A stretch of DNA of 64,000 nucleotides. Source: Minisyncoccota bacterium. Its GTDB lineage: Bacteria > Patescibacteriota > Minisyncoccia > Phycocordibacterales > UBA918. The stretch spans positions 33,346 to 97,345 of the forward strand of contig JALHRC010000001.1 in NCBI GenBank assembly GCA_022841645.1. Direction: 5' to 3'. Positions 5,052-62,862 of the stretch are shown piece after piece (position 1 is the stretch's first letter; each line of letters begins with the position of its first letter). The notes below the pieces were generated by a model. That model did no database searches. It saw nothing but the letters and a program-made list of their open reading frames with translations, and was not told the DNA's origin. The position numbers and the translations under genes are program-made.

Positions 5052-5145
5052 TTAGTTGTCCATAGAAGTAGAGGGAGAATATTTTGAAAACAATGCACGC
5101 ACGACCCCGCCTCTCTCGGGGTCGTGCGTGGTACACTTTGATTGT

Positions 5146-6650: not shown

Positions 6651-6701
6651 GGGGAATAAGGTTACCGAGTAGCCTTGGCCAGCGTGGTAGCATACGGGTG
6701 T

Positions 6702-7304: not shown

Positions 7305-7309
7305 TTGGT

Positions 7310-7885
7310 ATGTTTAAACTTAAAAAAACAAAAACTGGCTTTACCTTGGTAGAGATGCTCGTGGTCATTGCTGTTATCGGAGTCCTGGCGGCTATTGTGT
7401 ATGCGTCATTCAGTAACTCGCGCGCGCAGGCGCGTGATCGGATCCGCATGGAGCACATGAAGCAATTGCAAGTGGCCCTGGAGCTGTACAAAGATAAGTA
7501 CGGGCGCTACCCGGCGCGTGGCTGTGTGTCAGACCAGGCAGTTGCGCCGTGGTGGTCGGGCAATGTGGTTTCTTCTGCGCAAGTAGCAGGGTGTCAAAAT
7601 TACATCGTTGGTCATGCCAATGGAATTAACTTCGTCCCAGATTTTATAGAAGAACTACCGACCGATCCACGACCGTCCACGCTCGCCGGAAGAGGTTTAC
7701 TGTATCGGACCGATGCAGTAGGGACAATGTACGCAATCATGTACAACTTGTCAGTTGAAAGCCTTTTGGTATACGACAAGACTCATCCATTTGCACGGGC
7801 GCAAAGTAGTCAGTGCGCTAGTACACCCCCTGAGGCGCGCACGTACTTTTTGTCATCGCCTAGCCGCACTGCAGCTTGTTGGTAG
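7310..7885 (+). CDS. Type IV pilin/pseudopilin-like protein
   Basis: MFKLKKTKTG^FTLVEMLVVIAVIGVLAAIV and ELYKDKYGRYPARGC. Confidence 0.75.
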   Translation: MFKLKKTKTGFTLVEMLVVIAVIGVLAAIVYASFSNSRAQARDRIRMEHMKQLQVALELYKDKYGRYPARGCVSDQAVAPWWSGNVVSSAQVAGCQNYIVGHANGINFVPDFIEELPTDPRPSTLAGRGLLYRTDAVGTMYAIMYNLSVESLLVYDKTHPFARAQSSQCASTPPEARTYFLSSPSRTAACW

Positions 7886-31393: not shown

Positions 31394-32146
31394 TTATTCG
31401 TCTGTCGCTGGTTGGGGCAGTGGGGTAGGGGGCGGTGTGCCCTCGAGTTGCGAGATGAGGTTGTCGACGATTTCTTTGATAGTGGCGTATGATTGCGCGC
31501 CCTCAATCACTGCTTGCTGGTTTCCGACGAGCAAGACCGAATGAGGAGTGCCGGTGACACCGGCCGCAAAGCCTGCTTCCACGCCCTCTGCCACCCGCTC
31601 ACGCCAGCGACCGCCGTCGTAGCACGCTCTAAAGGCAGTAGTGTCGGCACCGGCACGCTCGGCGTACTCGTAAAGTCGCGTCATGTTGGTTGGCTCTTCC
31701 GGTAACCGCTCACCGAAGACGAGGTCGGAAAAGGTCCAAAAGGCTTCGTTACCAGCTACTTCACCGACACAGAGCGCCGCCTCAGAGATTTTTTGCGCAT
31801 TAGGGTGGAGTTCAACTATCGGCATTTGGCGGTATACCCACGCCACCTTACCCAAAAGGGCATACTCGGTCATCAGTTGCTGCATTGTCTCATGGAAAAT
31901 TTTGCAATACGGACAATCGTAATCGGAGTACTCTACGATCATGATGGGGGCATTGGGGTTGCCACGGATGTAGTCACTGTCGCCGACTGGAGGGATACCA
32001 CTCTCAAGAGCAGCGGTAGCGGCTGCGGGGGTGGTCGCTACCGAGCGGGCGCCGATGCCGCTAAAGTAGATAGCAATCGCAATAAACGCAAAACCTGCGA
32101 GAATAGCGAGGGGGACAGTGGCTGAAGTTGAGGTCGATCGATCCAT
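31394..32146 (-). CDS. DsbA-like thiol:disulfide oxidoreductase (thioredoxin fold, membrane-anchored)
   Basis: CPYC active site (YSDYDCPYCKIFHE) and an N-terminal TM segment. Start taken at internal ATG. Confidence 0.65.
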   Translation of the reverse strand: MDRSTSTSATVPLAILAGFAFIAIAIYFSGIGARSVATTPAAATAALESGIPPVGDSDYIRGNPNAPIMIVEYSDYDCPYCKIFHETMQQLMTEYALLGKVAWVYRQMPIVELHPNAQKISEAALCVGEVAGNEAFWTFSDLVFGERLPEEPTNMTRLYEYAERAGADTTAFRACYDGGRWRERVAEGVEAGFAAGVTGTPHSVLLVGNQQAVIEGAQSYATIKEIVDNLISQLEGTPPPTPLPQPATDE

Positions 32147-32351
32147 AATTATGAACGAGAGAAATTTACTCAATAACACGCCAAACAACCTTAGTGTGGC
32201 AGATTAGTGGAGTATACCATGGGACGTTTCTCTGGCGGAGAGACAAGGCCGTCGCCCATCCTCACAAGTGGCCCGGCATCCAACTTTATGCCCGTAATGC
32301 GCAGTACTTTTGCCATTACGTGGCAGTCTGACAGTGCTATACTTGCGTCGT

Positions 32352-46778: not shown

Positions 46779-48152
46779 TTATTCGTTGGGTACGAAGGTG
46801 AGCGCACTTCCACGCTTGTCACCACGGCCAGTACGACCAATGCGGTGCACGTAGTCTTCGTAGGTACCAGGGAGGTCGTAGTTGATTACGTGCGATACGT
46901 TGTCGACGTGGATACCGCGCGCAGCGACGTCGGTCGCCACCAGTACCTTCACCTCGCCACTCTTAAAGCGGGTAAGGGCGCGTTGGCGCTGACCATGCGA
47001 CTTGTTGCCGTGGATAGACTCGGCGGGGATGCCGGTCTTAGACAGTTCGATACCGAGCTTTTCGACACTGTGCTTCATCGCACCAAAGACGATTACGCGG
47101 GTAAACTCGGCCTTGCCAAGCAGGGTAACGAGGAGATCAAACTTGTGGGCATGATCATAGCGCACCACGTCTTGCGAAATCGCGGCAGTAATATCCTTCT
47201 TGCGTACCGAAACAGTAAGCGGGTCATTGAGAAATTCGTGGACGAGGCCCTCGATACTCTTTGACATGGTAGCTGAGAAGAAGAGGGTCTGCGCATTTTC
47301 CGGTACATCCTTGAGGATGGTCTTCATGTCATGGATGAATCCCATGTCGAGCATACGGTCAGCCTCGTCGAGAACGGCGGTAGTGACACGAGTGGTGTCG
47401 ATAAAACCACGCTCCATGAGGTCCTGGACACGGCCTGGCGTACCGATAATAAAGTTGTTCTTGCGCTTCAGTCCTGCAATTTGTGGGCGAATGTTAGCAC
47501 CTCCCACGCAGACGGTGGAGAAGAGCTTCATGTGCGGCGTGAGCTTGCGCAATTCCTGCTCGATCTGGATCGCGAGTTCGCGGGTAGGAGTGAGGATGAG
47601 GGTGACGCGGTTGCGGTCCCGCAGAGTATGGTGAATGATCGGGAGAAGGAACGCTGCAGTTTTGCCGGTGCCGGTTTGGGCGAGGCCAATAACATCCTTG
47701 CCTTCCAAAATAGGCATGATGGTCTGGTCCTGGATGGCACTTGGCACTTCAATACCTAGGCTATGGACTGCTCGCACAATCTCGGGCGCGAGGCCAAAGT
47801 CGTTGAAGGTGTGCGTTGGTACGTAGGCTGTCTCCGTCTCCACGGTTACCGGGTTCTTGTTGATATAGAGTGCAACGTCAAACGACGAACGCTGGCGACC
47901 GCGACCGCGGCCGGCGCCACCACCAAAGTGACCACCACGGCTACCGCTGGCTGAACGATGTGAGCCACCATGGTGTGAGGGGCGACTGCTGTACGAACCA
48001 CGGCTATGACCACCACCGTTGTGGGTGGCACTACTGCGATGCGGACTGTGGGGACGTGCCGATGGACGGTGACTAGTGTTACCGCCAGTGCGGCTCGGCG
48101 AATACGCGCGGCGCGGCGCCGGCGATGCGGGTAAGGGGGGCAATTGATACAT
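46779..48152 (-). CDS. DEAD-box ATP-dependent RNA helicase with N-terminal Arg/Gly/Ser/His-rich disordered region
   Basis: AQTGTGKT, VLDEADRMLDMGF, SAT and HRIGRTGRG motifs. The first ~95 aa are RGG/SH-rich low complexity. Confidence 0.9.
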   Translation of the reverse strand: MYQLPPLPASPAPRRAYSPSRTGGNTSHRPSARPHSPHRSSATHNGGGHSRGSYSSRPSHHGGSHRSASGSRGGHFGGGAGRGRGRQRSSFDVALYINKNPVTVETETAYVPTHTFNDFGLAPEIVRAVHSLGIEVPSAIQDQTIMPILEGKDVIGLAQTGTGKTAAFLLPIIHHTLRDRNRVTLILTPTRELAIQIEQELRKLTPHMKLFSTVCVGGANIRPQIAGLKRKNNFIIGTPGRVQDLMERGFIDTTRVTTAVLDEADRMLDMGFIHDMKTILKDVPENAQTLFFSATMSKSIEGLVHEFLNDPLTVSVRKKDITAAISQDVVRYDHAHKFDLLVTLLGKAEFTRVIVFGAMKHSVEKLGIELSKTGIPAESIHGNKSHGQRQRALTRFKSGEVKVLVATDVAARGIHVDNVSHVINYDLPGTYEDYVHRIGRTGRGDKRGSALTFVPNE

Positions 48153-48542: not shown

Positions 48543-49403
48543 TTAGAGCGATTGAAAAGGGAAGTGAGCGGTAAAAAAGGTGCTGGTGGCGGGGTGGTAG
48601 CGCGCGACGCCAAGGCCCTCCCGCTCTGCGAGGTCGGTAAGGGCAGCTTCGGGGAGCAGGAGTACGGCGGTCGCAAAGGCGTCGGCGTCGCGCGCGCTTT
48701 TCGCTAGCACAAAACTAGCGGCTTCGGTCTCTCCTATTATGTGGTGCTCGGTGCGGCCGTCTTTCCGCCACACTCGTTTGAAGGGACTCGAAGCGGCGAA
48801 GCCCCGGTTTTTGAGTGCTACCGTACCGAGATAGGTGTCGACCTCGGTGGGATGTTCGAGATGGATAGTGAGTGGCGCATCGTCGTCAGTGCTGCCGTAC
48901 ATATCACCCCCACCATTTATAAGAAATGACGCTACGCCACGGCTCCTTAATAGTGTCGCGAGTTCATCAACTAAATAGCCCTTTCCGAAACCGCCCGGGT
49001 CGAAGCTACCGGTTTCGAGTCTGATCTCACCCTCGGTGATGATGAGGTCGCTCTCGGGTGACGGCAGAGCGGCCGCAACCGCGGCCGCTCTGCCGTCACC
49101 ATAACCTCGCGCTACTAGTACTTCGCCCACCAAGCAATTAAATGTCCCCTCGGTACGTGTAAATAGCTCTTGCGCATACCTAAACAGCGCTAGACACGCG
49201 GGGTCGGGCACGCGCAGTACGCGCTCGCGATTGAGGATACCGACGAGTGAGTCCGGTCGAAACCTCGAGTAACGCGCTTCAAAGGTTGTTATGAGTGAAG
49301 TGAGTTCTGCGTGCACGTCTCCATGGTCAACTCCTATGGGCAGAGTTGCTTCGATCCACCACGCCGTGCCGAGAGCCGGAAAGCGGTCGAGGAGGAACTC
49401 CAT
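48543..49403 (-). CDS. apbE: FAD:protein FMN transferase (ApbE family)
   Basis: 286 aa with the ApbE fold pattern, including ...GGFGKGYLVDELA... and the C-terminal ...DADAFATAVLLL.... Confidence 0.75.
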   Translation of the reverse strand: MEFLLDRFPALGTAWWIEATLPIGVDHGDVHAELTSLITTFEARYSRFRPDSLVGILNRERVLRVPDPACLALFRYAQELFTRTEGTFNCLVGEVLVARGYGDGRAAAVAAALPSPESDLIITEGEIRLETGSFDPGGFGKGYLVDELATLLRSRGVASFLINGGGDMYGSTDDDAPLTIHLEHPTEVDTYLGTVALKNRGFAASSPFKRVWRKDGRTEHHIIGETEAASFVLAKSARDADAFATAVLLLPEAALTDLAEREGLGVARYHPATSTFFTAHFPFQSL

Positions 49404-49408
49404 GTTGA

Positions 49409-49924
49409 CTACGACTGCGTCTTAACGATCGCCTCAGCTACCACTGCATTAAAGGCTTGGCTCGTAAGCGAAGCGCCACCAACCCGCGAGAGGGAAATGT
49501 CGCTGAGCTTCTTTCCTACCACCAGCGTTTTATAGCTGTCGTCAAAGCGCTCTTGGAAAGGGTTTTGTCCTTGACCCTCGTTGTAGCTACTATCGACGGC
49601 GGTCACCACGCCATCCTTCACGACCAGGTTTACTGTGATCGACTCCTGGATCTTGGCCGGTGAACGGTACGGCATATGAACGGTGAGGGACTGTGAGGCA
49701 GCCACTACCGGTGCTGGCGTGGGTGGCGGAGCGGTGGGGGTGCTGGCTGGTGGTGTCGCGGGCTGTTGCGCAGTTGCGCCCGTCGGTTGTGCTGTAGTAG
49801 TAGGTGACACGGTTTCCTCTACCACCACTTCAGGTTCTGTGCCTGGCGTTGGTTCGGCACGGTTAACATAGACAACACCCACAACAATAAGTACGAGAGC
49901 AACAATTCCGATAACAATTGGCAT
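49409..49924 (-). CDS. Membrane-anchored extracytoplasmic FMN-binding domain protein (RnfG/NqrC-like)
   Basis: N-terminal TM helix, a Pro/Thr/Ala-rich linker, and an FMN_bind-like domain with GGASLTS resembling the [S/T]GA[T/S] covalent-FMN site. Directly downstream of apbE (5-nt gap). Confidence 0.6.
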   Translation of the reverse strand: MPIVIGIVALVLIVVGVVYVNRAEPTPGTEPEVVVEETVSPTTTAQPTGATAQQPATPPASTPTAPPPTPAPVVAASQSLTVHMPYRSPAKIQESITVNLVVKDGVVTAVDSSYNEGQGQNPFQERFDDSYKTLVVGKKLSDISLSRVGGASLTSQAFNAVVAEAIVKTQS

Positions 49925-50015
49925 AGGATAGGTTACAAGGAAATTAAAAGCTTAAACAGAAGAAGTATACACGACAGCGGGGCTCGTTTGCTCACTTCTG
50001 GTACAATACGGGTTC

Positions 50016-51578
50016 ATGACAGATTTATTTCATAAGGTAGCGGCCCCGTTTGCGCGTCATCTCGACCGCACTGGTATGTATCGCGTAGTGACGCAGAGTC
50101 TCATTGCCTTAACACTCATCTCACTCATTGCTGGAGCGTTTGGCCGTATACCGTACACCGTTCCCGAGCAGCTTATTTCACTTGCTCTAGCACTCGGGAC
50201 GGCATTTCTATTTAACGCTCTCGGAGCCCGGCTGTGGCGCATACATGTTAATTATGAATCCGCTATTATCACTGCGCTTATAGTCCACTTCCTCGTGGTA
50301 CCACCGACACTGAGTAGCGTGGTGGACAACTGGCAGGTGATGGCCGTGACGGCCATCGCTATTACGTCGAAATTTGTACTCGCTTGGCGTGGGCAGCATC
50401 TTATGAATCCGGCTGCGACGGGCGCTGTTGTGCTCGCGCTCGGCCTAGGGTTCTTTTCCACCACCGGTTTTTATAGTGGTTGGTGGATCGGCAGTCCCAC
50501 GCTGTTTATCCCACTGCTTATCTGTGGCGCTCTCGTGGTCTCGAAAGTCCGGGCCTGGCCACCGGTCTTGGCGTTTCTTGGTGTTGGCTTTCTGGTCTTT
50601 CTGTTTGAAGAGTGGCGCTTTAGTGGGGATGTGATCACGGGCGCGCAATATTTTTGGCTATCAGGACCATCAATCTTTTTGGCGGCCTTTATGCTCACTG
50701 AGCCGTTTACCATGCCACCAACCCGTAATCTTCGTCTGGCCTACGGTGCACTGGTGGGCGCGATCGCACAAACTTCGCTCTTCATGCCGTTTGTTACCAT
50801 TACTCCTGAGCTCGCGCTCGTTGCTGGCAACTTGGCGTTTTTTAGTTTTACAGTTCGACAAAAGCTCCGGTTGCCGCTCCTGCAGGCCCGCACAATTGCC
50901 GACCGCACCTACGAGCTAATCTTTAAAAAGCCGGCTAGTTTTACCTTTAAAGCGGGGCAGTACCTGGAGTGGATGTTGCCGCATCAAGGTGCCGACAGTC
51001 GGGGTATTCGCCGCTATTTCACGATCGCTTCATCGCCCACCGAGCCCGATATTCGCCTGGCGCTCCGCGTGCCTCCGGAAGCGGGGAGTACCTACAAGCA
51101 ATCACTTGTATCCCTCGCGCCCGGGCAGGTGGTGACCGCGAGCCAGCTGGCGGGAGATTTTGTACTGCCGAGCGATCATACACTTAAAATTGCGATGGTG
51201 GCCGGTGGCATTGGGGTCACACCATTTCGTAGTCACTTGGCGTTTCTTACCGATGCCGGTACCAAACAAGACATCGTACTTTTTTACTGTAACAACACTG
51301 CTGCAGAGATTGCTTATAAGGATGAGTTTGCGCACTTTGCGAAGGCGCTACCGCTGCGGATAGTACATGTTTTAGCCAAGGAAACGGTTCGGGGTGCCGA
51401 GTATGAGCAAGGCTTCTTGTCAGGTGAAATTATTGTCCGCCGCAGCCCCGATTACCGAGAACGTCTTTGGTATGTCTCCGGTCCACCACCAATGGTAAAC
51501 GCTATTACGTCACAGCTGCGCACACTTGGCGTGCCACGTGGGCAGATCGTGAAGGACTTTTTCCCGGGCCTAGCCTAG
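50016..51578 (+). CDS. Fusion protein: RnfD/NqrB-like polytopic membrane domain + ferredoxin-NADP reductase-type FAD/NAD(P)H-binding domain
   Basis: The N-terminal ~280 aa have 8+ TM helices and GQHLMNPAATGAVVL (cf. RnfD/NqrB GQNPFNPAM). The C-terminus has RRYFTIASSP (R-x-Y-S/T FAD site) and GGIGVTPF (NAD(P)H site). -10 TACAAT at 50002-50007. Confidence 0.65.
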   Translation: MTDLFHKVAAPFARHLDRTGMYRVVTQSLIALTLISLIAGAFGRIPYTVPEQLISLALALGTAFLFNALGARLWRIHVNYESAIITALIVHFLVVPPTLSSVVDNWQVMAVTAIAITSKFVLAWRGQHLMNPAATGAVVLALGLGFFSTTGFYSGWWIGSPTLFIPLLICGALVVSKVRAWPPVLAFLGVGFLVFLFEEWRFSGDVITGAQYFWLSGPSIFLAAFMLTEPFTMPPTRNLRLAYGALVGAIAQTSLFMPFVTITPELALVAGNLAFFSFTVRQKLRLPLLQARTIADRTYELIFKKPASFTFKAGQYLEWMLPHQGADSRGIRRYFTIASSPTEPDIRLALRVPPEAGSTYKQSLVSLAPGQVVTASQLAGDFVLPSDHTLKIAMVAGGIGVTPFRSHLAFLTDAGTKQDIVLFYCNNTAAEIAYKDEFAHFAKALPLRIVHVLAKETVRGAEYEQGFLSGEIIVRRSPDYRERLWYVSGPPPMVNAITSQLRTLGVPRGQIVKDFFPGLA

Positions 51579-51629: not shown

Positions 51630-52292
51630 TTACCACTCGATCGGAGTTTGGCCGCGTTCCTTCAAATAGGCATTGGCTTTGCTGAAGTGTTTGCAGCCGA
51701 AAAAGCCATTATAGGCAGAGAAGGGGGAGGGGTGAGCTGCTTCGAGGATTAAATGTTTATCGCGATTGATGTGGGCACCTTTTTGCTTGGCGTAGTTGCC
51801 CCACAGCATAAACACTAGGTGCTCGCGCTCCTCGGAAAGCGCTTTCACTACAGCGTCGGTAAATTGTTCCCAACCCTTGCCTTGATGCGAGCCGGGACTA
51901 CTGGCTGCCACCGTCAGTGTGGCGTTAAGTAAAAGTACGCCTTGCTTGGCCCAGCGCTCGAGATTACCGGAGGAGGGAATTGGTGTACCAATGTCATCAG
52001 CGATTTCCTTATACATGTTTTGTAGCGACGGCGGCGGTCGCACACCATCGCGCACTGAGAAGGAAAGACCGTGGGCTTGGCCAACACCGTGATACGGGTC
52101 TTGTCCCAAAATTACTACCTTTACCTTTGCAAAAGGGCAGTGCGCAAAAGCGTTGAAGATATCTTTTGGCGCCGGATAGACCGTGCCGGCGAGGTAGGCG
52201 GCGCGCACAAATTCCTTGAGCTCCTTGAAATAATCCTGTTCGAATTCAGGGGCGAGCACCATTTTCCAGCTTTCTTCAATACGAACGTTCAT
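51630..52292 (-). CDS. ung: Uracil-DNA glycosylase (family 1)
   Basis: GQDPYHGVGQAHGLSFSV and HPSPFS(A) motifs. Confidence 0.9.
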   Translation of the reverse strand: MNVRIEESWKMVLAPEFEQDYFKELKEFVRAAYLAGTVYPAPKDIFNAFAHCPFAKVKVVILGQDPYHGVGQAHGLSFSVRDGVRPPPSLQNMYKEIADDIGTPIPSSGNLERWAKQGVLLLNATLTVAASSPGSHQGKGWEQFTDAVVKALSEEREHLVFMLWGNYAKQKGAHINRDKHLILEAAHPSPFSAYNGFFGCKHFSKANAYLKERGQTPIEW

Positions 52293-52320
52293 CGCGGAAG
52301 TATACGATACTTGTCAGCTC

Positions 52321-52467
52321 AGCGTCACGGCAGCAATTGTTCGGCACGCGTCTCGTTTTCTCTTGGGGGAGAAAACACGCGCTCCCGCTCAGGGTGGTAC
52401 TTTTCTCAAGCAGGCTTGAGAAAAGTACCACCCTTCCGCGAGACCTCACATTTGCTGCCGTGACGCT
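52321..52467. repeat. Nested inverted-repeat element (16-bp perfect outer arms, 20-bp inner hairpin, extra 8-bp hairpin)
   Basis: Outer arms are agcgtcacggcagcaa ... ttgctgccgtgacgct. Inner hairpin is agggtggtacttttctcaag-caggc-cttgagaaaagtaccaccct. It also contains gctcccgctc and a ccgcgag motif, as in the 10158..10296 element. Confidence 0.6.
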
Positions 52468-52480
52468 TGTCCACTATTTT

Positions 52481-53215
52481 TTATACTTCGGGCTGAAAGT
52501 TATTACGGCTCCAGTTCCATAAAATTGGATGGAGCGTAATCGGGGCAATGCCGGTATTTTGAAGAAGGGTAAACCACGCCGCCGCTACCTCTTCAGGAGA
52601 AGCTCCAGCTGGTACAAGACCAAGGTGTACTGAACACTGCTGTACGTGCGTGTCGGGAATAATTGAAAGTTGCTCTTTGTTCTGCAACGGTATGTCGGTG
52701 TAATGGTGGAGAATGTACAGCCAGTAATTGGCCATTTTGCCGCCATTTAGGTAGGGAAAGTCGACCTTGTGTTCACGCAAATAAGGAATAACACTCGGGA
52801 CATCGTAGTGGTGTGTTTTCAGAAGTAAGCGTGGGTCACTGTGCCAGTCGCGGTGGAGTGTGGTGCATAGCCGATGCCAGATGGCGGTATGTTTGTTCTC
52901 TTGTAGTGAGAGCTTGTGTTTCCGTAGGTCACTGCGCAGTTTTTCGTATGGTGCAGCGACGACGAGCTCAGGAAAAAACACATAGTTCGTTTCCGGATCT
53001 TCCCACGTGGCGAGCGCCGCCCGCCATAGAGCGGGGCTTTGACGTTGAAAGTTGAGCGCTGGTGCAAGAGTAAAATACAAGTAACGTTCGCGACTATCCC
53101 GCGGCAGGTCTGGATGTACTTCATGTTCGTGTTCACGCGGGATAGCGCCGGCATCCCAGAGTGCCATCAGTTTTTTAACTTTTGCGAGTGGTAAGTCGTT
53201 CATGGCTTCTGGCAT
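52481..53215 (-). CDS. Hypothetical protein embedded in fpg-X-ung operon (possible DNA-repair glycosylase/accessory; family not recognised)
   Basis: 244 aa, Trp/His-rich, with no motif I can assign by eye. Overlaps the fpg 3' end by 16 nt and has slightly lower G+C than its neighbours. Confidence 0.45.
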   Translation of the reverse strand: MPEAMNDLPLAKVKKLMALWDAGAIPREHEHEVHPDLPRDSRERYLYFTLAPALNFQRQSPALWRAALATWEDPETNYVFFPELVVAAPYEKLRSDLRKHKLSLQENKHTAIWHRLCTTLHRDWHSDPRLLLKTHHYDVPSVIPYLREHKVDFPYLNGGKMANYWLYILHHYTDIPLQNKEQLSIIPDTHVQQCSVHLGLVPAGASPEEVAAAWFTLLQNTGIAPITLHPILWNWSRNNFQPEV

Positions 53216-54060
53216 TTAGGGCAATAATGGGTGCCGCGGCCGGCGCAGCGGATCTTTACAATGTTGGTGCCACATACCGCGCAGGGAGTATTTTGTTTGC
53301 CAAAGACACGCAGGTAGTCAGAGAAGTTGCCCTTCTCGCCGCCCGTGTCGGCAAAATGTTGGAAGGTGGTGCCGCCGACAGCGATTGATTCCGAAAGTAC
53401 GTCGCGGGCAGCCACCGCCACGAGGCGCAGGCGTGGCAGTGAAAGGGAAGTACCTAAGCTCGTAGGGCGTACCCCGGCGCGAAAAAGCGCTTCGTCGACG
53501 TAGATGTTCCCGAGGCCCGCGATGAATGACTGGTCGAGGAGAATGGCCTTGATGGGTGTGCGACGCTTTTTGGCACCGCGTACAAATGCTTCCACATCAA
53601 ACGTGTCGCTGATCGGTTCGGGGCCAAAGGCGGCGCGCGCTTCCTCTACCTCGCGTGGACTCGCGAGTTTGGTGTAGCCAAAAAGCCGCATGTCGTTGAA
53701 GTAGAGGGTGCTGCCGCCCTCCAAGTGAAAAGCCACGCGCGTGTGCTTACTTGGCAGTGTGGTGTCGATGGGGGAGAGGGTGTGCCCGCCACCCGACACT
53801 TTCCCCTTGTCTACATAGAGAAACTGCCCGGTCATCTTAAGGTGCGCGAGGAGGTGGTGCGCGGAGTCTTGAAAAGACACAATAAGCAGCTTTCCTACGC
53901 GGTCGATGTCAGCGATGGTAAGTCCTTTGAGTTTTCGGCCAATGGCGCGATCGTGTGCGACAGTTTTGGGGTGAAAAACCTCTACGCAGGCGATAGTTTT
54001 GCCGCGTACTTTCTGTCGTAACTGTAGGCGCACCGTCTCGACTTCGGGTAGTTCGGGCAT
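53200..54060 (-). CDS. mutM: Formamidopyrimidine-DNA glycosylase (Fpg/MutM)
   Basis: MPELPEVETVRLQL, the N-terminal catalytic Pro2/Glu3; a H2TH region; a C-terminal zinc finger CAVCGTNIVKIRCAGRGTHYCPKCQ. Confidence 0.9.
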   Translation of the reverse strand: MPELPEVETVRLQLRQKVRGKTIACVEVFHPKTVAHDRAIGRKLKGLTIADIDRVGKLLIVSFQDSAHHLLAHLKMTGQFLYVDKGKVSGGGHTLSPIDTTLPSKHTRVAFHLEGGSTLYFNDMRLFGYTKLASPREVEEARAAFGPEPISDTFDVEAFVRGAKKRRTPIKAILLDQSFIAGLGNIYVDEALFRAGVRPTSLGTSLSLPRLRLVAVAARDVLSESIAVGGTTFQHFADTGGEKGNFSDYLRVFGKQNTPCAVCGTNIVKIRCAGRGTHYCPKCQKP

Positions 54061-54222: not shown

Positions 54223-54534
54223 GAGTTCCTCCTTAGGTACGTGACTTGGGTTACTACCTCGTTCTCCAGAATAGTAAGCGTTGTGTCGAAAACGACAAGT
54301 GTACTTTGTTAGTTTTCGGTAGAACGCTCACTGGATGGTGAGAACGGTTCTTTGACTTTGACGTAAATAAAAAGAAATCAGGACTTCCGAGAAGCTTTCT
54401 TGTCCCATCTACGGCGTTGCCTGCGTCGCAAAAACATTCACTGTACGTCTAGTACAGCTTATGCTTTTGCTCCTGGGCGCCTTGTAGCTAGAACAATAAA
54501 TCTTCTCTTAAAACAGAATCTAGCGAGCGAATTG

Positions 54535-54596
54535 CGGCGACCGAGGTGTTTGGGTGATGTGGTGTTTCTATACCACCTCGCCACCTCGGTCGCCGC
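54535..54596 (+). promoter_or_regulatory. 15-bp perfect inverted repeat hairpin immediately upstream of the lipoprotein gene RBS
   Basis: gcggcgaccgaggtg ...32 nt... cacctcggtcgccgc. The RBS gaagggaga lies at ~54618 and the ATG at 54633. Confidence 0.4.
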
Positions 54597-54632
54597 GATC
54601 CTGCGGCACCAATTCCCTGAAGGGAGAACGCC

Positions 54633-55205
54633 ATGCGCGTGCTTCGTAACTTGGGCGCCTGCTTGGCGCTCCTCCTCTCGCTCGTCGCCTGCGCTACCAC
54701 CCAGACCGGTGGAGCGCAGTGGGCCGGCCTCGACGCGGACCGCTGGGGCGGGGTTCTCTGGATCAAGGAGACCACCCGTACCCGCCAGATGATGGCGGGT
54801 CTCACCGGGGCGCAGCGGTTCGCGCAGCTCTATGCGGCGATCAATCCGCGTACGCCCGCCGATCGCATCAGCGGCGTCGAGCCGGGTCGGAACGGACCGG
54901 TCACCATGACCATCCGTTCCGGTCCCACCGTCCACTGGCGGGGTGAGGGGCAGATCGACAATGGCATCGCGCGAGTGCGCGTGCCGGCGGGGACGAGGAT
55001 TCCCTCGACTGCGTCCCTCTGCGCCGTCTTCCCGACGACGCTCGGCCCGAACAATCAGGTTAGCCCGCGTGAAGATATCGTGGCGAGAGGCGAAGAGGGT
55101 CGAACGGCCTGCCTCGATGGGCGGATCTTCGACTACTTCGTCAACCAGAGCCGCGGTCGGCGAGCGGAGGACGGCCTGGCCGTCCTTGGCTTCGAAAGGA
55201 GCTGA
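54633..55205 (+). CDS. Lipoprotein of unknown function (G+C-rich islet)
   Basis: Signal peptide with lipobox LLLSLVAC; 190 aa. Codon usage is strongly GC3-biased, unlike the core genes. Confidence 0.55.
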   Translation: MRVLRNLGACLALLLSLVACATTQTGGAQWAGLDADRWGGVLWIKETTRTRQMMAGLTGAQRFAQLYAAINPRTPADRISGVEPGRNGPVTMTIRSGPTVHWRGEGQIDNGIARVRVPAGTRIPSTASLCAVFPTTLGPNNQVSPREDIVARGEEGRTACLDGRIFDYFVNQSRGRRAEDGLAVLGFERS

Positions 55206-55207
55206 GG

Positions 55208-55783
55208 ATGATCAAGCGTCGTTCTATCATCTTCGCTGCCGGAGCGAGCTTGCTCGCTCCGGCGGTGGCCACAGCCCGTCAGTCGCGTTCGAACTACGAG
55301 CCGGTCTGGTGGAATGCCACCACCGGCGTCTCCGAGTGGCGGCAGCTGGGTGCGCGACCGCAGCGGGAGACCGCGACGTTTGCGCAGTTCCTTGCCATGC
55401 CGCGCGTGCGTCGGGCTCTCTCCGAGAACCCGACCACAGCGGCAGTGCGGGCAGCGGCACTGGGTGCGGAGATGGGGCGTGTGAAGCGGGAACATCCCCG
55501 CGGCAATGTTCATCTCTTCCAGCACCAGCGGTTCGACATCATGGGCTTCGCCGCCCCGCGCGGTAGCCAGAGTGGTGTCGCTTCGCTGGCCACCAACGTC
55601 CTCCTGACCGCTTCGCTCGACGGTGTCAACACCGCGGGTTGGGTGGTCAACGAGTACTGGAGCGGTGGTGGTGTTCAGGCTGCCGAGTGGGCTGTCTGTG
55701 GCAACTCCACCCTCGACGGTCACGGCTCCACACTCCCATGCGAGTGCGTCCCTCGGCTGGGTGACTTCTGCCCACAGTCCTGA
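55208..55783 (+). CDS. Secreted protein of unknown function (G+C-rich islet; possible Tat-type signal)
   Basis: MIKRRSIIFAAGASLLAPAVATA signal (RR motif); 191 aa. Starts 3 nt after the lipoprotein gene. Confidence 0.5.
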   Translation: MIKRRSIIFAAGASLLAPAVATARQSRSNYEPVWWNATTGVSEWRQLGARPQRETATFAQFLAMPRVRRALSENPTTAAVRAAALGAEMGRVKREHPRGNVHLFQHQRFDIMGFAAPRGSQSGVASLATNVLLTASLDGVNTAGWVVNEYWSGGGVQAAEWAVCGNSTLDGHGSTLPCECVPRLGDFCPQS

Positions 55784-55904
55784 TCGGTGTTGGCCGTCGC
55801 GTTACAGATGTTTCGCGACGGCTCCACCACCTTTTTATTTTTATTATTCTCGCGTACATGGTGTAGGTGAGAATAACTGAAATAAAAATAATTATTTATT
55901 GACT

Positions 55905-57200
55905 ATGCAAATCTTTATCAAAGGTACTTTAATTGCGGTTGTGGCCATTGGAGTTTTCTCTTCAGTAGTGGTTTTCGACCTGCAACAGCACGCTGGCTAC
56001 CTTACTTCCACAGTAGCCGCTTTCGGTGAAGGTGGTAATGATGGTGGTGGTGGTAATGACGGCGGTAGTAACGGTGGTGATGGTGGTAATGATGGTTGTG
56101 GTGGTTGTAATCCTGCACCTGCTGACCCGGGAGGCGGCGGCACCACTAACCCCCCTTCAAACGAAAACGGTGGTGATATTCCACCCCCTCCACCCCCGCA
56201 GCCTCCGGCAAACATCCCGCCCGTGTGTACCTTACAGGCAAACCTTACCTCAATCGTGCGGGGTAACAGCGCAGTCCTCACCTGGACCATGAGTGCCGAC
56301 ACCACCGGTGCGACGCTCAATGGCGCTTTCCTGGCCGTCGGAAATGGTTCACAGACGGTCTCTCCGACTGAGACTATTACCTACACCATATTAGTAACCG
56401 ATGGCGAACTCTCTTCTACGTGTGCCGCTACGGTAACGGTTACTACCACTCCCACTACACCGACCTTCACGTGTGAAAACAACGTGACCTTGAGCGTTAG
56501 TCCAACCCGTATCACGCGTGGCAATAGTGCAACAATTTCCTGGAACGTTACGGGTGCAACCAGTGTGTCGATCGATAATGGGGTGGTGACCAATAATGCC
56601 CGTTCTGGATCGGCAGCCGTGTCGCCTAGCGACAGCACCACCTATACACTTACCGCAGTGAAGGGTGCTACTACCATTACCTGCGCGGTAACGCTTACTG
56701 TAGAGAGTGGTGGCGGAGGTGGGGGTGGTGGCGGTTCTTCTACTCCCCGCTGTGAGCTCACGGCGTCTGACCGCACTATTCGCTCGGGCGACCGGGTCAC
56801 CCTCCGTTGGGAGACGTCACGCGCTACCTTTGTCGAAATTCGCGACAATCGTAACAATGTGATTGTGACCACCCGCGGCAAGCTTGGTCGCGATAAGGAA
56901 GAGCTGTATGACGGCAGCATTACCGTGCGTCCAGCCCGCGATACCACTTATACCCTCACGGCAGAACGTGGTAGTCGTGATCGTGAATGTACGGTAAAGA
57001 TCGATGTGAGTGACGACGTTACGGTAATCCGTGATCAACAGCCACTCGTGGTCAGTATCCCACTTTCCTCACTACCGTACACTGGTGTTGACGCAAAGAC
57101 GGCGATGCAGCTCTCGATATTGGCACTCCTTGTAGCATGGGCCGGGTACCTCGCGTACACCTTCTACCGCCGCGACAAGTTGGCAGTAGTGAAGCGCTAA
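55905..57200 (+). CDS. Sortase-anchored (LPxTG-type) surface protein with three Cys-bracketed Ig-like repeats
   Basis: N-terminal TM/signal; a Gly/Asn/Asp-rich tract and P9 linker. Three ~85-aa repeats (C..L..(R)GNSA.L.W.......TYTLTA..G....C..T..V). C-terminal LPYTG + hydrophobic helix + RRDK tail is the classic sorting signal. Confidence 0.75.
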   Translation: MQIFIKGTLIAVVAIGVFSSVVVFDLQQHAGYLTSTVAAFGEGGNDGGGGNDGGSNGGDGGNDGCGGCNPAPADPGGGGTTNPPSNENGGDIPPPPPPQPPANIPPVCTLQANLTSIVRGNSAVLTWTMSADTTGATLNGAFLAVGNGSQTVSPTETITYTILVTDGELSSTCAATVTVTTTPTTPTFTCENNVTLSVSPTRITRGNSATISWNVTGATSVSIDNGVVTNNARSGSAAVSPSDSTTYTLTAVKGATTITCAVTLTVESGGGGGGGGGSSTPRCELTASDRTIRSGDRVTLRWETSRATFVEIRDNRNNVIVTTRGKLGRDKEELYDGSITVRPARDTTYTLTAERGSRDRECTVKIDVSDDVTVIRDQQPLVVSIPLSSLPYTGVDAKTAMQLSILALLVAWAGYLAYTFYRRDKLAVVKR

Positions 57201-58588: not shown

Positions 58589-59434
58589 ATGTCGTGGCGT
58601 CGCTACCTTAGTATTTCCCGCCCTCGTTTTTGGCTGTATGAGCTTGGCACGTTCGCGTTGGGTGTGCTTTTAGCCTATCCATTTGCTCCCGAGGTTTCCT
58701 TCACCCTGATCGCGCTTTTTGCGCTGTACTTTCTATTTCCGGGAAATCTTCTCATTTACGGTATTAATGATGTTTACGATTACGAAACTGATCTACGCAA
58801 TCCAAAAAAGACCGGATATGAAGACGTACTTCAGCCCGCACTACACATACCAGTGCTGCGGATGGTAGCGCTCACCACTGCTCCGTTTGTGCTTCTCTCG
58901 CTCACGCTCCCGCACTCGGCGCTCGTCTCGTTCCTCGTTTTTATATTTTTTGCTGTTTTTTACTCGATGCCGCCAGTACGTGCCAAAGCGCGGCCTGGGC
59001 TCGATAGTCTCTTTTCCGCCGGGCATTATGTAGCAACGGGTGTGTTTGGCTTCTATCTTGCCGGTGGTACGGGTGACGTAACACTGCTCGTCCTGGCCGG
59101 TATGCTGTGGGCTACTGCGATGCACGCCTACTCGGCAGTGCCTGATATCGAAGCCGATACGGCAGCGGGGCTCGCCACCGTCGCTACGTTTCTTGGTAAA
59201 TCACGTACGATTATTGTCTGCGCTCTCCTTTACCTCGCCGCGTGGGTGACACTCTATTTGTGGCTCGAAGATATGGCACTCCTCCTCGCGCTGCCGTATC
59301 TCGCAGTGATGGCGGCATCGCTACGAGCGACGCCTGAGCGCCTATGGCAACTGTATACCTACTTTCCCTGGCTTAATACGGTGGTCGGTATGGTTTTGGT
59401 GCTCACCTTGTTGCACCTCAAAGGATTCTTTTAA
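58589..59434 (+). CDS. UbiA-family prenyltransferase, lycopene-elongase-like (CrtEb/LyeJ-type) by context
   Basis: 8 TM helices and Asp-rich motif NDVYDYETD. Convergent with, and overlapping, the crtI 3' end. Confidence 0.65.
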   Translation: MSWRRYLSISRPRFWLYELGTFALGVLLAYPFAPEVSFTLIALFALYFLFPGNLLIYGINDVYDYETDLRNPKKTGYEDVLQPALHIPVLRMVALTTAPFVLLSLTLPHSALVSFLVFIFFAVFYSMPPVRAKARPGLDSLFSAGHYVATGVFGFYLAGGTGDVTLLVLAGMLWATAMHAYSAVPDIEADTAAGLATVATFLGKSRTIIVCALLYLAAWVTLYLWLEDMALLLALPYLAVMAASLRATPERLWQLYTYFPWLNTVVGMVLVLTLLHLKGFF

Positions 59435-60939
59435 AGCGACGTTAAGGGATGGGGGGTAGTGATGCCCATAATGCGCTTATAGACATTTTGAGCGGAGATA
59501 ACACAGATCGGCATACCAATGCCGGGGTTTTGGTAGGAGCCGACGAAGTAGAGGTTTTTGACTTTCTTCGATACGTTGTTGGGGCGCCAGAGCGCCGATT
59601 GTCCGAGGGTATGCGCCAGGCCAAGGGCGGTGCCTTTAAAGCTGTGGTAGTCAAGTGAAAAATCTTCGGCACAGTAGATACGTTCGTAGTCGAGGTTGGT
59701 TCGTAGTCCGGTTAGGCCGAGACGTGTTTCCAGGATACTAAGGGTACGGTCGGCCCAGGCGCGCTTTTTGCTTTCGTCGTAGGTGACGCCGGCGGAAAGC
59801 GGTACGAGGACAAAGAGATTTTCGTGGCCAGGCGGAGCGACGTTTCTGTCGCTTTTACTGGGAGCACAGACGTAGATGGATGGGTCGGTGGGGAAGTCGT
59901 CGTGGTTAAAAATCTCCTTAAAGTTTTGTTCCCAGTTTTCGGTAAAGAGGAGGTTGTGGTGGGTGAGGTTTTCAAACTGCTTTTTAACCCCCAGGTACAT
60001 AATAAACGCACTCGGCGCCAGGGTACGTTTGTTCCAGTAGCGCTCACTATGGTCGCGCTCTTGCGGTGCCAAGAGAGCCGTTTCGGTATGGTGGAGATCG
60101 GCATTACTGACTACTAGGTCAGCGTGCTGTACGGTACCGTTTTCTAGTTCAACACCCACCGCCTGACCGTTTTCGGTAACGATGCGGCGCACGGGGGCGT
60201 GGTAGTGGAAGTGCACGCCGCATTTCTCGGCCAGCTTCCCGATAGCTTTTGGTAGTTCGCCAATGCCACCGTCGGGGTACCAGATACCAAGGTCGAAGTC
60301 GACATGATTCATGAGGCGGTACATACCGGGTGCGTCTTTAGGTGCGGTGCCAAGGAGTACCATCTGAAAGAGCATCACCTTGCGCAATAGTTCACTCGTA
60401 AAGGTGCGGTGAATAATCCGCTCCATGCTATTTAATATCTCGAGCTTGCGTCCCTCACGCATGACGCGTTTGTTAAAAAAGTCGAAAATGGAGTCGTAGT
60501 TTTTGTAGATAAACTCGTGTTTGGCAATACCATACTGGCGCGCTGATTCATCAAGATAATCAATCAGTTTTTTGCCTGCTCCGGGTTCGATGGCGTCAAA
60601 TACAGCAGCATTACGCGCGCGGTCAGCAAAGAAATCATGATGTTCGCCGGTTGAACCGAGAAAGACGCGGTAGGAAGGAGCCAGTTTTTTTAGGGTGAGG
60701 TAGTCGTGAATATTTTCACCCATCAAGGTAAAGAAATGTTCAAAAACGTCCGGCATCATGTACCACGATGGGCCCATGTCAAAGGTATAGCCGTGGTCGC
60801 TAAAGACGCGCGCTCGGCCGCCAATTGATTCGTTTTTTTCGTAGACGTCGACAGTGCAGCCCTGCTTTCCGAGCATAGCGGCGAGCGAAATACCACCAAA
60901 GCCGGCACCGATAATAATGGCGGATTTACGAGCTGACAT
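59431..60939 (-). CDS. crtI: Phytoene desaturase
   Basis: N-terminal Rossmann AIIIGAGFGGISLAAML...VYEKNESIGGRA and a CrtI-family C-terminus. Confidence 0.85.
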   Translation of the reverse strand: MSARKSAIIIGAGFGGISLAAMLGKQGCTVDVYEKNESIGGRARVFSDHGYTFDMGPSWYMMPDVFEHFFTLMGENIHDYLTLKKLAPSYRVFLGSTGEHHDFFADRARNAAVFDAIEPGAGKKLIDYLDESARQYGIAKHEFIYKNYDSIFDFFNKRVMREGRKLEILNSMERIIHRTFTSELLRKVMLFQMVLLGTAPKDAPGMYRLMNHVDFDLGIWYPDGGIGELPKAIGKLAEKCGVHFHYHAPVRRIVTENGQAVGVELENGTVQHADLVVSNADLHHTETALLAPQERDHSERYWNKRTLAPSAFIMYLGVKKQFENLTHHNLLFTENWEQNFKEIFNHDDFPTDPSIYVCAPSKSDRNVAPPGHENLFVLVPLSAGVTYDESKKRAWADRTLSILETRLGLTGLRTNLDYERIYCAEDFSLDYHSFKGTALGLAHTLGQSALWRPNNVSKKVKNLYFVGSYQNPGIGMPICVISAQNVYKRIMGITTPHPLTSL

Positions 60940-61771
60940 AACTGCGCAGTATCATACTACCTTTGCGCCAAGCCGGAACACGTACCCGCTCACTAAATAC
61001 GTCGTAGCGGGCGTGCTCAATTTCATCCAAAATGGCTTCGTAGAAACGAGCCGCTAGACGAACAGCGCGTCGTGACTGCGGTGAGAGGAGCTCTATACCC
61101 AGCTCGGCCGTGCGGTAGAGGGTGCGCGCACGGGCGACCTCGTGCTGCATGAGTGTAATAAACTGTGGGGTAGGAGCGTGTTCCGCAATCATGGCCTCGG
61201 TGACGCCAAATCGTGCACATTCGTCTTGTGGAAGGTATATGCGACCGCGCTCATCGTAATCTTCTCGAACGTCGCGCAGGAAGTTGGTAAGTTGCATCGC
61301 CTCACCTAAAGCGGCCGCGTAGAAAAAAGCTTCGTCACTCTTAAACCCGAAAATGTAGGTCAGCATGACACCTACGGCCTGGGCGGAGCCGCGCATGTAG
61401 GTACGCAATTCTTCGTAGTTGTGGTAGCGGGTTTTTTCCAGGTCCATAATCATGGCGTCAATAAACTCGAGACTAACCGAGAGGGGAATGTGGTAGTGAT
61501 GGAACAGTTCGCTGGTGGCGGCGAGAATGGGGTGATGTGATTCCTTCGTATCGTAAGCGAGTATCCAGTCGTTCTTCCACTCATGGAGGCGTACTGCTGG
61601 GTCGCTCCCAGGGAGGGGATTGTCAACCATTTCATCCGGGAGGCGCGCAAAAGCGTAGAGGACAAACACTGCGTCGCGCAGCGCTCCAGGCAAAAACAAG
61701 GTGGCGCGGTAGTAGCTTGTGCCATAGCGGGCAGCAATAGCGCGAGCGGTGGTGATGGTGGCGGGGGACAT
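60926..61771 (-). CDS. crtB: Phytoene synthase
   Basis: Squalene/phytoene synthase Asp-rich motifs (..FARLPDEMVDN.. and ..ILDEIEHARYDVF..). Confidence 0.85.
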   Translation of the reverse strand: MSPATITTARAIAARYGTSYYRATLFLPGALRDAVFVLYAFARLPDEMVDNPLPGSDPAVRLHEWKNDWILAYDTKESHHPILAATSELFHHYHIPLSVSLEFIDAMIMDLEKTRYHNYEELRTYMRGSAQAVGVMLTYIFGFKSDEAFFYAAALGEAMQLTNFLRDVREDYDERGRIYLPQDECARFGVTEAMIAEHAPTPQFITLMQHEVARARTLYRTAELGIELLSPQSRRAVRLAARFYEAILDEIEHARYDVFSERVRVPAWRKGSMILRSYVSS

Positions 61772-61773
61772 GG

Positions 61774-62862
61774 CTAGGTAGTGCGGTGATGTACGAGCTC
61801 GAGGAGTCCAAAGAGTAGTGCTACCTCACCTTGAGAAAGGAGTGGGTCAGTGAGGGCTTTCTGAGCGTTGTCAGCTAGGCTAGTTATGCACGTTTGGGCG
61901 TAGGCGATTGCGCCACTTTCCAGAAACATTTCTAGCAGTTCGGCCTTTTGCTGGGGCGTGAGGGGGTTGCCGCTGTGGGCATCAAGGAGCGCGGCGGCTT
62001 TGCCGCCGCGCTCGCGTACAAACGCCGTGAGTAGGGTGTGTTGCCCTTGTTCAACATCTTGAAAGGTAGGCTTCTGAGTTTCTTGTTCGTTTCCCAACAC
62101 ATCAAGCAGGTCGTCTTGGATTTGGTAGAGCTGTCCAAGGGCTAGACCAAAACGAGTGAGGGCAGGGATGGTTGCTTCTCGTCCGGCGAGGGTGGCGCCG
62201 ATATGGAGTGGTCGCACAAAAGAATAACGAGCGGTTTTAAACTCGTTCTTTTTTCGCACGAGCTCCTCACTCACGTGCTCGGCGACGGTAAGGTCGATAT
62301 CGAGCATTTGCCCGAGACACACCTCTTCGACCAGTGTATGAAAAATAGTACTAATAGCTGGCGAGTAAGGAAGGCCGCGGGCTGCGGCAGCAAACAGTAG
62401 CTGACTTACGAGGTTGAATACCATATCACCCACTAAAATGGCCTGACTTTCGCTCGCCCGTACAGCGGCCTCGTCTCGAGACACCTCCTGATACATGGTG
62501 CTCCTGGTAAAGTGGTGGAGCGTTGGCACGCCGTGACGTAGTGGAGCCTCGTCCATCACATCGTCGTGAATGAGGCAAAAAATATGAAAGAGCTCGACGG
62601 CTAAAAGAAGTTCGCGCAGGTCGGCGAGTGCTGCGGTGGGGTATTGTTCCTTGTAGAGAGCAAAAACAACAAAGGGCCGCAGGCGCTTGCCACCCTCGGC
62701 CACCTTGAGTAGGTGTAGAAACAGCGTGTTGATCGTCGGATGATCAACGGTGGTGTGATAGCGCTTGGTAGTTTCTGAAAGATAGTCTCGGAGCAATTCA
62801 TCAAAGGCCGCTTTAAAGCGGCCGGCCTCGACTTTCAGATCTGGGGATGAAACGCTCGGCAC
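61774..62862 (-). CDS. crtE: Polyprenyl (geranylgeranyl) diphosphate synthase
   Basis: FARM LIHDDVMDEAPLRHG and SARM GQLYQIQDDLLD. Confidence 0.8.
   Translation of the reverse strand: MPSVSSPDLKVEAGRFKAAFDELLRDYLSETTKRYHTTVDHPTINTLFLHLLKVAEGGKRLRPFVVFALYKEQYPTAALADLRELLLAVELFHIFCLIHDDVMDEAPLRHGVPTLHHFTRSTMYQEVSRDEAAVRASESQAILVGDMVFNLVSQLLFAAAARGLPYSPAISTIFHTLVEEVCLGQMLDIDLTVAEHVSEELVRKKNEFKTARYSFVRPLHIGATLAGREATIPALTRFGLALGQLYQIQDDLLDVLGNEQETQKPTFQDVEQGQHTLLTAFVRERGGKAAALLDAHSGNPLTPQQKAELLEMFLESGAIAYAQTCITSLADNAQKALTDPLLSQGEVALLFGLLELVHHRTT

Follow-up and report, generated by a model that had tools for sequence, protein, structure and literature searches.

In the RNF (RnfABCDGE) and Na+-NQR (NqrABCDEF) complexes, the membrane subunit RnfD/NqrB holds two flavins about 8 Å apart, a riboflavin close to the cytoplasmic face and a covalent flavin mononucleotide (FMN) close to the outer face, and trades electrons with the FMN of RnfG/NqrC on the outside and with RnfC or quinone on the inside (PMC12174285). 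'NQR/RNF-like systems' were defined in 2021 by Meheust, Huang, Rivera-Lugo, Banfield, and Light in eLife (PMC8238504); the section of that paper that deals with them gives an operational definition, namely a PF03116::PF00175 fusion inside a flavinylation-associated gene cluster, and counts 127 such clusters in 127 genomes, primarily of Actinobacteria and the candidate phyla radiation (CPR). The part of Huang et al. 2024 that is concerned with these systems (PMC10979944) presents a model of the Ktedonobacter complex in which the two subunits dock directly with the FMN domain on the outer face, notes that the flavinylation site is lost in the NqrB/RnfD-like domain, and suggests that the NqrC/RnfG-like partner lets its covalent FMN sample the flavin site of the membrane subunit. 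Here, we describe a three-gene locus at positions 48543..51578 of a 64,000-nucleotide stretch of DNA from a Minisyncoccota bacterium (contig JALHRC010000001.1; hereafter the window), which, by its domains and gene content, we assign to this known system.

The locus comprises, in this order, a gene for an ApbE-family FAD:protein FMN transferase, where FAD is flavin adenine dinucleotide (apbE; 48543..49403, minus strand, 286 aa; Pfam PF02424, E=5e-35), a gene for a membrane-anchored FMN-binding subunit (49409..49924, minus strand, 171 aa; published name 'NqrC/RnfG-like'), and, on the plus strand, a gene for an RnfD/NqrB-like::FNR fusion protein (50016..51578, 520 aa; PF03116 plus PF00175), with FNR denoting a domain of the ferredoxin-NADP reductase type. 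A first reading of the window from its letters and translated open reading frames (ORFs), which we will call the sequence-only reading, had proposed exactly this trio, and the reading frames and the motifs it quoted all lie at the expected coordinates. As in the definition of Meheust et al., a single polypeptide starts with an NqrB/RnfD domain (PF03116) and ends with a NAD-binding domain of NqrF type (PF00175), and where that definition asks for an ApbE and/or FMN_bind gene within five genes, both are immediately adjacent here. As in the account of Huang et al., the second subunit is a membrane-anchored FMN_bind protein, with the conserved motif S-R-V-G-G-A-S152-L-T-S, and the NqrB/RnfD-like domain has not kept the Thr that is flavinylated in NqrB/RnfD. 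A canonical six-subunit RNF or Na+-NQR is found neither among the about 40 ORFs screened in the window nor among the conserved neighbors in 80 related loci from species-level genomes; these are the best 80 of 468 relatives of the fusion protein, and all synteny, gene-order, and neighbor counts given below rest on them. The claim of the sequence-only reading that this architecture was undescribed as a unit therefore falls, because both the architecture and the same proposed function had been published in 2021 under the name 'NQR/RNF-like system' (PMC8238504, section 13 and Supplementary file 2; PMC10979944).

Our preferred reading, to which we assign a probability of roughly 0.6, is that the module constitutes a two-subunit, flavin-only transmembrane electron conduit of the NQR/RNF-like kind, encoded together with its maturation enzyme. 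NAD(P)H would reduce FAD in the cytoplasmic FNR domain, which would replace RnfC; a flavin held in the inner pocket of the RnfD/NqrB-type membrane domain, to which the FNR domain is fused, would take up the electrons and hand them to an FMN on Ser152 of the tethered subunit, occupying or approaching the vacated outer pocket if the subunits dock as in the model of Huang et al. 2024. The FMN subunit, on a flexible stalk of ~55 residues, would finally pass the electrons to an extracytoplasmic acceptor, and ApbE would be responsible for attaching FMN to this subunit. The module can thus be likened to an RNF reduced to its RnfC-RnfD-RnfG half and working backwards, with no return path. The sequence-only reading had arrived at the same path, from NAD(P)H via FAD and a membrane flavin to an extracytoplasmic FMN, and the anatomy of the proteins, their topology, and their synteny all speak for it.

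The N-terminal half of the fusion protein (about residues 1-283; 50016..50864, plus strand) is a polytopic membrane domain with a true RnfD/NqrB fold, as had been proposed from its sequence. It scores 44 bits against PF03116 NQR2_RnfD_RnfE (cut-off 27.7), and while a single-sequence search against PDB sequences returned no match, a profile built from 25 sequences of this domain reaches RnfD in the PDB with E=7.4e-5. The alignment with RnfD takes in the K...H-x-x-NPA segment (motif GQHLMNPAATG, 50391..50423, plus strand, likened earlier to GQNPFNPAM) and the FMLTEPxT/FFIATDPVT segment. An AlphaFold2 model of the fusion protein, calculated with 24 homologues, has a mean predicted local distance difference test score (pLDDT) of 88.5 and a predicted template modeling score (pTM) of 0.85, and a fold search likewise identified the membrane domain as RnfD/NqrB, with Amt/Rh transporters as the next-best matches. 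The NCBIfam models give only weak partial matches to RnfD, RsxD, and NqrB, far under their equivalog cut-offs (28.9 bits for TIGR01946 rnfD against 207, and 20 bits for NqrB against 414), such that the domain is not a full-length equivalog of either subunit.

The same alignment shows that RnfD residues ~143-221 (about 78 residues) face only about 9 profile positions and have no counterpart in the profile. This is the loop which we take to carry the flavinylated Thr, Thr187 in V. cholerae RnfD. No [ST]GA[ST] motif occurs anywhere in the fusion sequence, and a cytoplasmic flavinylation motif in this protein was rejected on that basis. With the loop lost and the motif missing, the RnfD-like domain is predicted not to be an ApbE substrate itself; the background statement of the sequence-only reading, that ApbE modifies RnfG, RnfD, NqrB, and NqrC, thus does not carry over to the RnfD-like member of this locus, in which the FMN on Ser152 of the FMN-binding subunit probably fills the outer flavin position.

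The properties of the membrane domain also bear on a different view of the module, in which the RnfD/NqrB-like domain still moves Na+ or H+, and the outward transfer of electrons is either coupled to this ion movement or driven by the membrane potential. The protein would then act as an ion transporter powered by redox chemistry or as a reductase powered by the potential, and not as a passive wire. The fold has been kept, with transporters of the Amt/Rh type next in the list of matches, the polar intramembrane residues E81, K119, Q127, H128, N131, and E229 are invariant, and NqrB is described as taking part in Na+ translocation, on the proposed Na+ path of Na+-NQR (PMC12174285). Coupling in RNF and NQR is, however, ascribed to the RnfA/E (NqrD/E) switch acting with RnfG and RnfD, and the switch partners are found neither among the screened ORFs of the window nor as conserved neighbors in the 80 loci, so we regard an energy-coupled module as rather unlikely.

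The C-terminal half of the fusion protein (about residues 284-520; 50865..51575, plus strand) is a complete cytoplasmic FNR-type FAD/NAD(P)H module, here again in agreement with what had been proposed. PF00175 NAD_binding_1 is matched with E=5e-15, the fold comprises the FAD-binding barrel and the NAD(P)-binding Rossmann fold of the FNR superfamily together with its R-x-[YF]-[ST] and GGxGxxP motifs, and among the NCBIfam models this half falls within FNR-type reductases (flavohaemoprotein, BenC, NqrF). The FAD motif RRYFTIASSP (51009..51038, plus strand) and the NAD(P)H motif GGIGVTPF (51204..51227, plus strand) are conserved across 24 homologues, in which the majority of residues of RRYFTIASS and GGIGVTPF are invariant. 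The domain is similar to the dehydrogenase domains of NADPH oxidases (NOX), and the overall plan, in which an FNR domain in the cytoplasm is joined to an electron-transfer domain in the membrane that delivers on the outside, is shared with NOX/FRE, MsrQ-like, and PepSY-like reductases; the transmembrane domains of those enzymes are, however, bis-haem domains, whereas that of the present module is of RnfD/NqrB type and presumably flavin-only.

This likeness could be taken to indicate a dedicated enzyme, which reduces extracellular Fe(III) or siderophores for iron assimilation, or O2 in the manner of NADPH oxidases, and not a device for general redox balancing. In keeping with such a role, the section of Meheust et al. 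on these systems lists the VIT1 ferrous-iron transporter in 6 of the 127 clusters (PMC8238504), and iron reduction is linked to analogous systems, MsrQ-like and PepSY-like, that have NAD-binding domains at their C-termini. The resemblance to NOX is nevertheless confined to the FNR domain, and no iron-transport or other acceptor gene is conserved beside the trio in the 80 loci or stands beside it in the window, which makes a dedicated iron- or O2-reducing function unlikely.

The FMN-binding subunit is composed of a two-residue N-terminus, a transmembrane anchor (residues 3-21; 49862..49918, minus strand) found both by hydrophobicity scan and as a predicted helix, a disordered linker rich in Pro, Thr, and Ala (residues 22-75; 49700..49861, minus strand; pLDDT 50-62), and an FMN_bind domain predicted to be extracytoplasmic (residues 76-171; 49412..49699, minus strand). 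Its AlphaFold2 model (mean pLDDT 81.8) shows the helix at 3-21, the linker of ~55 residues at low confidence, and a confident beta-beta-beta-alpha-alpha domain of ~95 residues at 78-170; the linker, as delimited by scan, is 83% P/T/S/A/G/E/Q, and linkers of variable length occur in all orthologues. Because FMN_bind is matched by 18 of 30 syntenic orthologues (best 4.7e-6), the family profile matches the solved FMN-binding domain 8p2a (E=0.0017), with VaGaS-LTS in register with VSGAT-YTS, and Ser152 is invariant, we assign the window protein to FMN_bind, an assignment which is secure but holds only through its orthologues. The motif GGASLTS (49460..49480, minus strand) had been singled out by the sequence-only reading as holding a flavinylatable Ser or Thr, and this is borne out: the Ser of G-[AS]-S that corresponds to Ser152 (49469..49471, minus strand; SRVGGA-S-LTS), the predicted site of covalent FMN attachment, is kept in all aligned orthologues and pairs with the Thr of SGAT in 8p2a, while the position six residues ahead of it alternates between Ser and the canonical Asp. 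The identification of the protein as RnfG/NqrC-like has fared less well, since the FMN subunit matches no RnfG or NqrC model in NCBIfam and no RnfG/NqrC chain is among its top 50 fold matches; it is a minimal FMN_bind module, not an RnfG orthologue.

We also considered the topology of this subunit, comparing 71 sequences (the window copy and its orthologues). Lipoprotein signal peptides with a lipobox (for example, LAGC), a basic n-region, and a hydrophobic core are present in 36 of the 71, almost all of them Actinomycetota records, and these orthologues are thus predicted to be Sec-type lipoproteins with the FMN domain outside the cytoplasm; a Tat route was considered and rejected, as the twin arginine is missing in most of the signal peptides. 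The Patescibacterial subunits, including that of the window, begin with "MP" and a transmembrane helix that leads into an acidic Pro/Thr stalk. The window protein has an N-terminal transmembrane anchor and not a clear cleavable signal, and the acidic C-terminal flank of the anchor would fit an N-in/C-out orientation. Pfam largely fails to detect the FMN subunits of Patescibacteria, most of which have no precomputed domain.

The best 120 database relatives of the fusion protein share 50-100% identity with it and measure about 520 aa, nearly all of them being full-length proteins with the two domains, and the 468 relatives mentioned above were confirmed in a scan of species-representative genomes. 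The best 80 of these come from Patescibacteria (Paceibacteria, Kaiserbacteria, Saccharibacteria, and Peribacteria) and from Actinomycetota (Microbacterium, Agreia, Plantibacter, Arthrobacter, Aeromicrobium, and Nakamurella). A neighborhood check across the two groups, as the sequence-only reading had suggested, found the three genes adjacent in 68 of the 80 loci, in five gene orders: FMN gene > apbE > fusion in 47 loci, the divergent arrangement of the window in 14 (a minority, 14/68), fusion > FMN gene > apbE in 4, and two further orders in 3. Syntenic in 68 of 80 species-level genomes, the trio is linked far beyond chance. The sequence-only reading had also suggested that the module could dump redox equivalents at the host interface of an episymbiont that has no respiratory chain; while this might apply to Patescibacterial carriers, the module also occurs in free-living Actinomycetota and is therefore not confined to episymbionts. 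Eight Patescibacterial loci with the fusion gene (L019-L022, L025, L026, L053, and L057) have no detectable FMN subunit, and in these ApbE, if detected, is shorter (~250 aa) and weakly similar; they may represent a divergent sub-type of the module.

The synteny also speaks to whether the genes could be stray members of a full RNF or NQR complex that is encoded at another place in the genome, of which our inspection covered 64 kb. The sequence-only reading had noted that no other rnf/nqr subunits accompany the trio, and indeed none of RnfA/E, NqrD/E, RnfB/C, and NqrA/F is found among the about 40 screened ORFs of the window, whose only family matches are to housekeeping, glycan, DNA-repair, and carotenoid-type families, nor are other rnf/nqr genes conserved neighbors in the 80 loci. 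The RnfD-like domain, moreover, comes with an NAD(P)H module of its own in the same polypeptide and is missing the flavinylated loop that RNF/NQR require, the trio forms a conserved unit in 68 of the 80 genomes, and Meheust et al. class NQR/RNF-like as a separate system in the section devoted to it (PMC8238504). A scattered canonical complex is, in light of these observations, extremely improbable.

Compared with the published NQR/RNF-like system, nothing essential differs: the PF03116::PF00175 fusion beside apbE and an FMN-binding gene, the distribution over Actinobacteria and CPR/Patescibacteria, the lost RnfD flavinylation site, and the proposed one-way flow of electrons from NAD(P)H to the outside are the same, with the qualification that the FMN subunit of the window is too divergent for the Pfam FMN_bind threshold. 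In contrast to RNF, and to its RnfC-RnfD-RnfG branch in particular, the module is without RnfB and the RnfA/E [2Fe-2S] switch, has a fused FNR domain in place of RnfC, and lacks the covalent-FMN Thr loop of RnfD; its globular FMN domain is of ~95 aa, compared to ~180 aa in RnfG, and its electron flow is presumed to be one-way outward, whereas that of RNF is a loop. Relative to Na+-NQR, it is without the NqrF ferredoxin domain, NqrA/D/E, and the quinone-binding N-terminal helices of NqrB, and there is no evidence of Na+ pumping for the module. The flavin-based extracellular electron transfer of Listeria type (Ndh2, EetA/B, PplA, FmnB) resembles it in that electrons from NADH arrive at a surface lipoprotein that carries FMN_bind domain(s) and is flavinylated by an ApbE; the FMN subunits of Actinomycetota are lipoproteins, as PplA is. 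The module differs in that it lacks a quinone intermediate, Ndh2, and EetAB, leaving the transmembrane step to the RnfD-like flavoprotein, and in that FmnB is an exported lipoprotein, whereas the ApbE of the module is leaderless.

This last difference deserves closer attention. The ApbE of the module matches PF02424 with 121.7 bits over residues 12-262, and reaches E-values down to 4e-11 against ApbE chains in the PDB, including the E. coli and Salmonella structures, with the GKGY, GGGD, TSG-like, HxI, and DADxxAT segments aligned. The majority of ApbEs are exported lipoproteins. The ApbE of the window bears neither a signal peptide nor a lipobox, which are typical, if not universal, of exported ApbEs, and its conserved ALGT motif starts at residue 10, preceded by nine residues, with no upstream extension of the ORF possible; in 3pnd, a Salmonella ApbE construct from which the signal peptide has been truncated, ALGT is at residue 21. 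In the 63 loci with the FMN gene directly ahead of apbE, the distance from the upstream stop codon to the conserved Gly codon of ApbE is below 75 nt in all but one (62/63; median 32 nt), too short a stretch to hold a leader. Those parts of Meheust et al. 2021 and Huang et al. 2024 that treat these systems do not take up the lack of a leader on ApbE, which, together with the Patescibacterial FMN subunits that Pfam largely misses, is a modest addition to the published system.

Several observations weigh against the electron conduit that we favor. The window protein's own match to FMN_bind lies below the Pfam threshold (15.2 bits compared to 22; E=0.035), and a fold search with the FMN subunit returned small alpha/beta folds of the IscU/SufU-like kind at E~0.02, while 8p2a came no higher than rank 22 (E=0.21), a result that we have not used as evidence either way. 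When all ORFs of the 80 loci were clustered in search of a fourth conserved gene, which might encode the terminal acceptor, no family was present in more than 12 loci; the top extra families are lineage-specific neighbors, with Microbacterium contributing a histidine kinase and a P-type ATPase, and the clade of the window itself contributing UDG and Fpg. Furthermore, no biochemical characterization of any NQR/RNF-like member was found in the literature searched. Finally, a leaderless ApbE in essentially all orthologues, set against a presumed substrate that is exported, makes the maturation of Ser152 a puzzle.

It is possible that FMN is attached in the cytoplasm to the still-unfolded C-terminal motif prior to export, that a second, secreted ApbE is encoded elsewhere in the genome, or that ApbE has a different role, such as flavin loading. 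Cytosolic ApbEs are known, and their substrates are cytosolic (PMC12052999). A cytosolic ApbE in all lineages could mean either cytoplasmic flavinylation followed by export, or an unrecognized route of ApbE to its substrate, each of which would differ from the periplasmic ApbE paradigm; we put this forward as a tentative proposal. Flavinylation in the cytoplasm or by an unrecognized route would remove the need for FAD export, which would fit the minimal genomes of Patescibacteria, and these would in that case encode a surface reductase that is self-sufficient, uses flavins only, and is driven by NAD(P)H. The same data could also be read with no electron export at all, if the ApbE were to flavinylate an FMN domain that works inside the cell, or to act as an FAD pyrophosphatase or flavin-loading factor for the membrane domain. 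The precedent of cytosolic ApbEs and the near-universal lack of a leader in the informative loci would suit such cytoplasmic flavin chemistry, but about half of the FMN-subunit orthologues bear Sec-type lipoprotein signal peptides and the remainder a signal-anchor with an acidic Pro/Thr stalk, and the multimer model in the relevant part of Huang et al. puts the FMN domain on the outer face (PMC10979944). We therefore consider it very unlikely, and retain the outward electron conduit as the preferred reading.

Hundreds of genomes of Patescibacteria and Actinomycetota contain the module. Should the published model hold, it would be the simplest known way for a bacterium to move NAD(P)H electrons across a membrane, needing two proteins and flavins only, with no quinone, haem, or iron-sulfur cluster. 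In ultra-small fermentative Patescibacteria, it could serve as a main route for disposing of reducing equivalents, or could supply reducing power to the cell surface. The present locus is of value as another clean, compact example, the orthologues in cultivable Actinomycetota provide a route to experiments, and the leaderless ApbE raises the concrete question of where flavinylation takes place.

As regards the arrangement of the genes, apbE begins 5 nt past the stop codon of the FMN-binding gene; this gap is as given by the sequence-only reading, but apbE lies downstream, and not upstream, in the direction of transcription. The divergence of the fusion gene likewise stands, with a spacer that measures 91 nt (49925..50015) and not 92 nt. 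The proposed -10 element TACAAT is present at 50002..50007, preceded by TGg (TGgTACAAT; element region 49999..50016), but a consensus promoter scan of the divergent spacer found no full -35/-10 site. As this element ends 8 nt ahead of the ATG of the fusion gene, where no Shine-Dalgarno sequence is found, the sequence suggests that the mRNA of the fusion gene may be leaderless. Downstream of the fusion gene, at 51630..54060 (minus strand), are genes for UDG, a 244-aa protein without assignment, and Fpg. Homologues of UDG and Fpg also neighbor the module in the six closest relatives (L001-L006), which looks like clade-level synteny and not a functional link.

Elsewhere in the window, scans for tRNA genes and for Rfam families at the gathering threshold returned none in the 64 kb. 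The G+C content is locally raised (0.586) at 54400..55800, with many long overlapping ORFs on both strands, and the two best of these, 54633..55205 and 55208..55783, have no family match. The ORF at 55899..57200 (plus strand) encodes 433 aa with Gly-rich and Thr/Ser-rich repeated modules, a C-terminal hydrophobic anchor, and no family match, and may be a surface protein. A DEAD-box helicase at 46779..48152 (minus strand) has an N-terminal tail of ~90 residues rich in Arg, Ser, Gly, His, and Pro, one 300-aa ORF at 3403..4305 (plus strand) is NusB fused to a NUDIX hydrolase domain, and four consecutive genes at 5056..7885 (plus strand) carry N-terminal methylation (type IV pilin-like) motifs. 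At 31394..32188 (minus strand), ~18 kb from the module, is a gene for a DsbA-like thioredoxin-fold protein, with a match below cut-off to the Rcas_1661 thioredoxin-like lipoprotein family; as an extracytoplasmic redox protein, it is a conceivable, if unlinked, client of exported reducing power. Finally, a carotenoid-type cluster at 58589..62862 encodes a prenyltransferase of the UbiA family (NF009516, above cut-off with 239 bits), a desaturase of the CrtI family (TIGR02734, 485 bits), and two synthases, one of the phytoene/squalene type and one for polyprenyl chains. Such a cluster is unexpected in a Patescibacteria-like genome, and because the carotenoid pathway and the Nqr/Rnf-like module are both also found in Actinomycetota, it hints at gene exchange.

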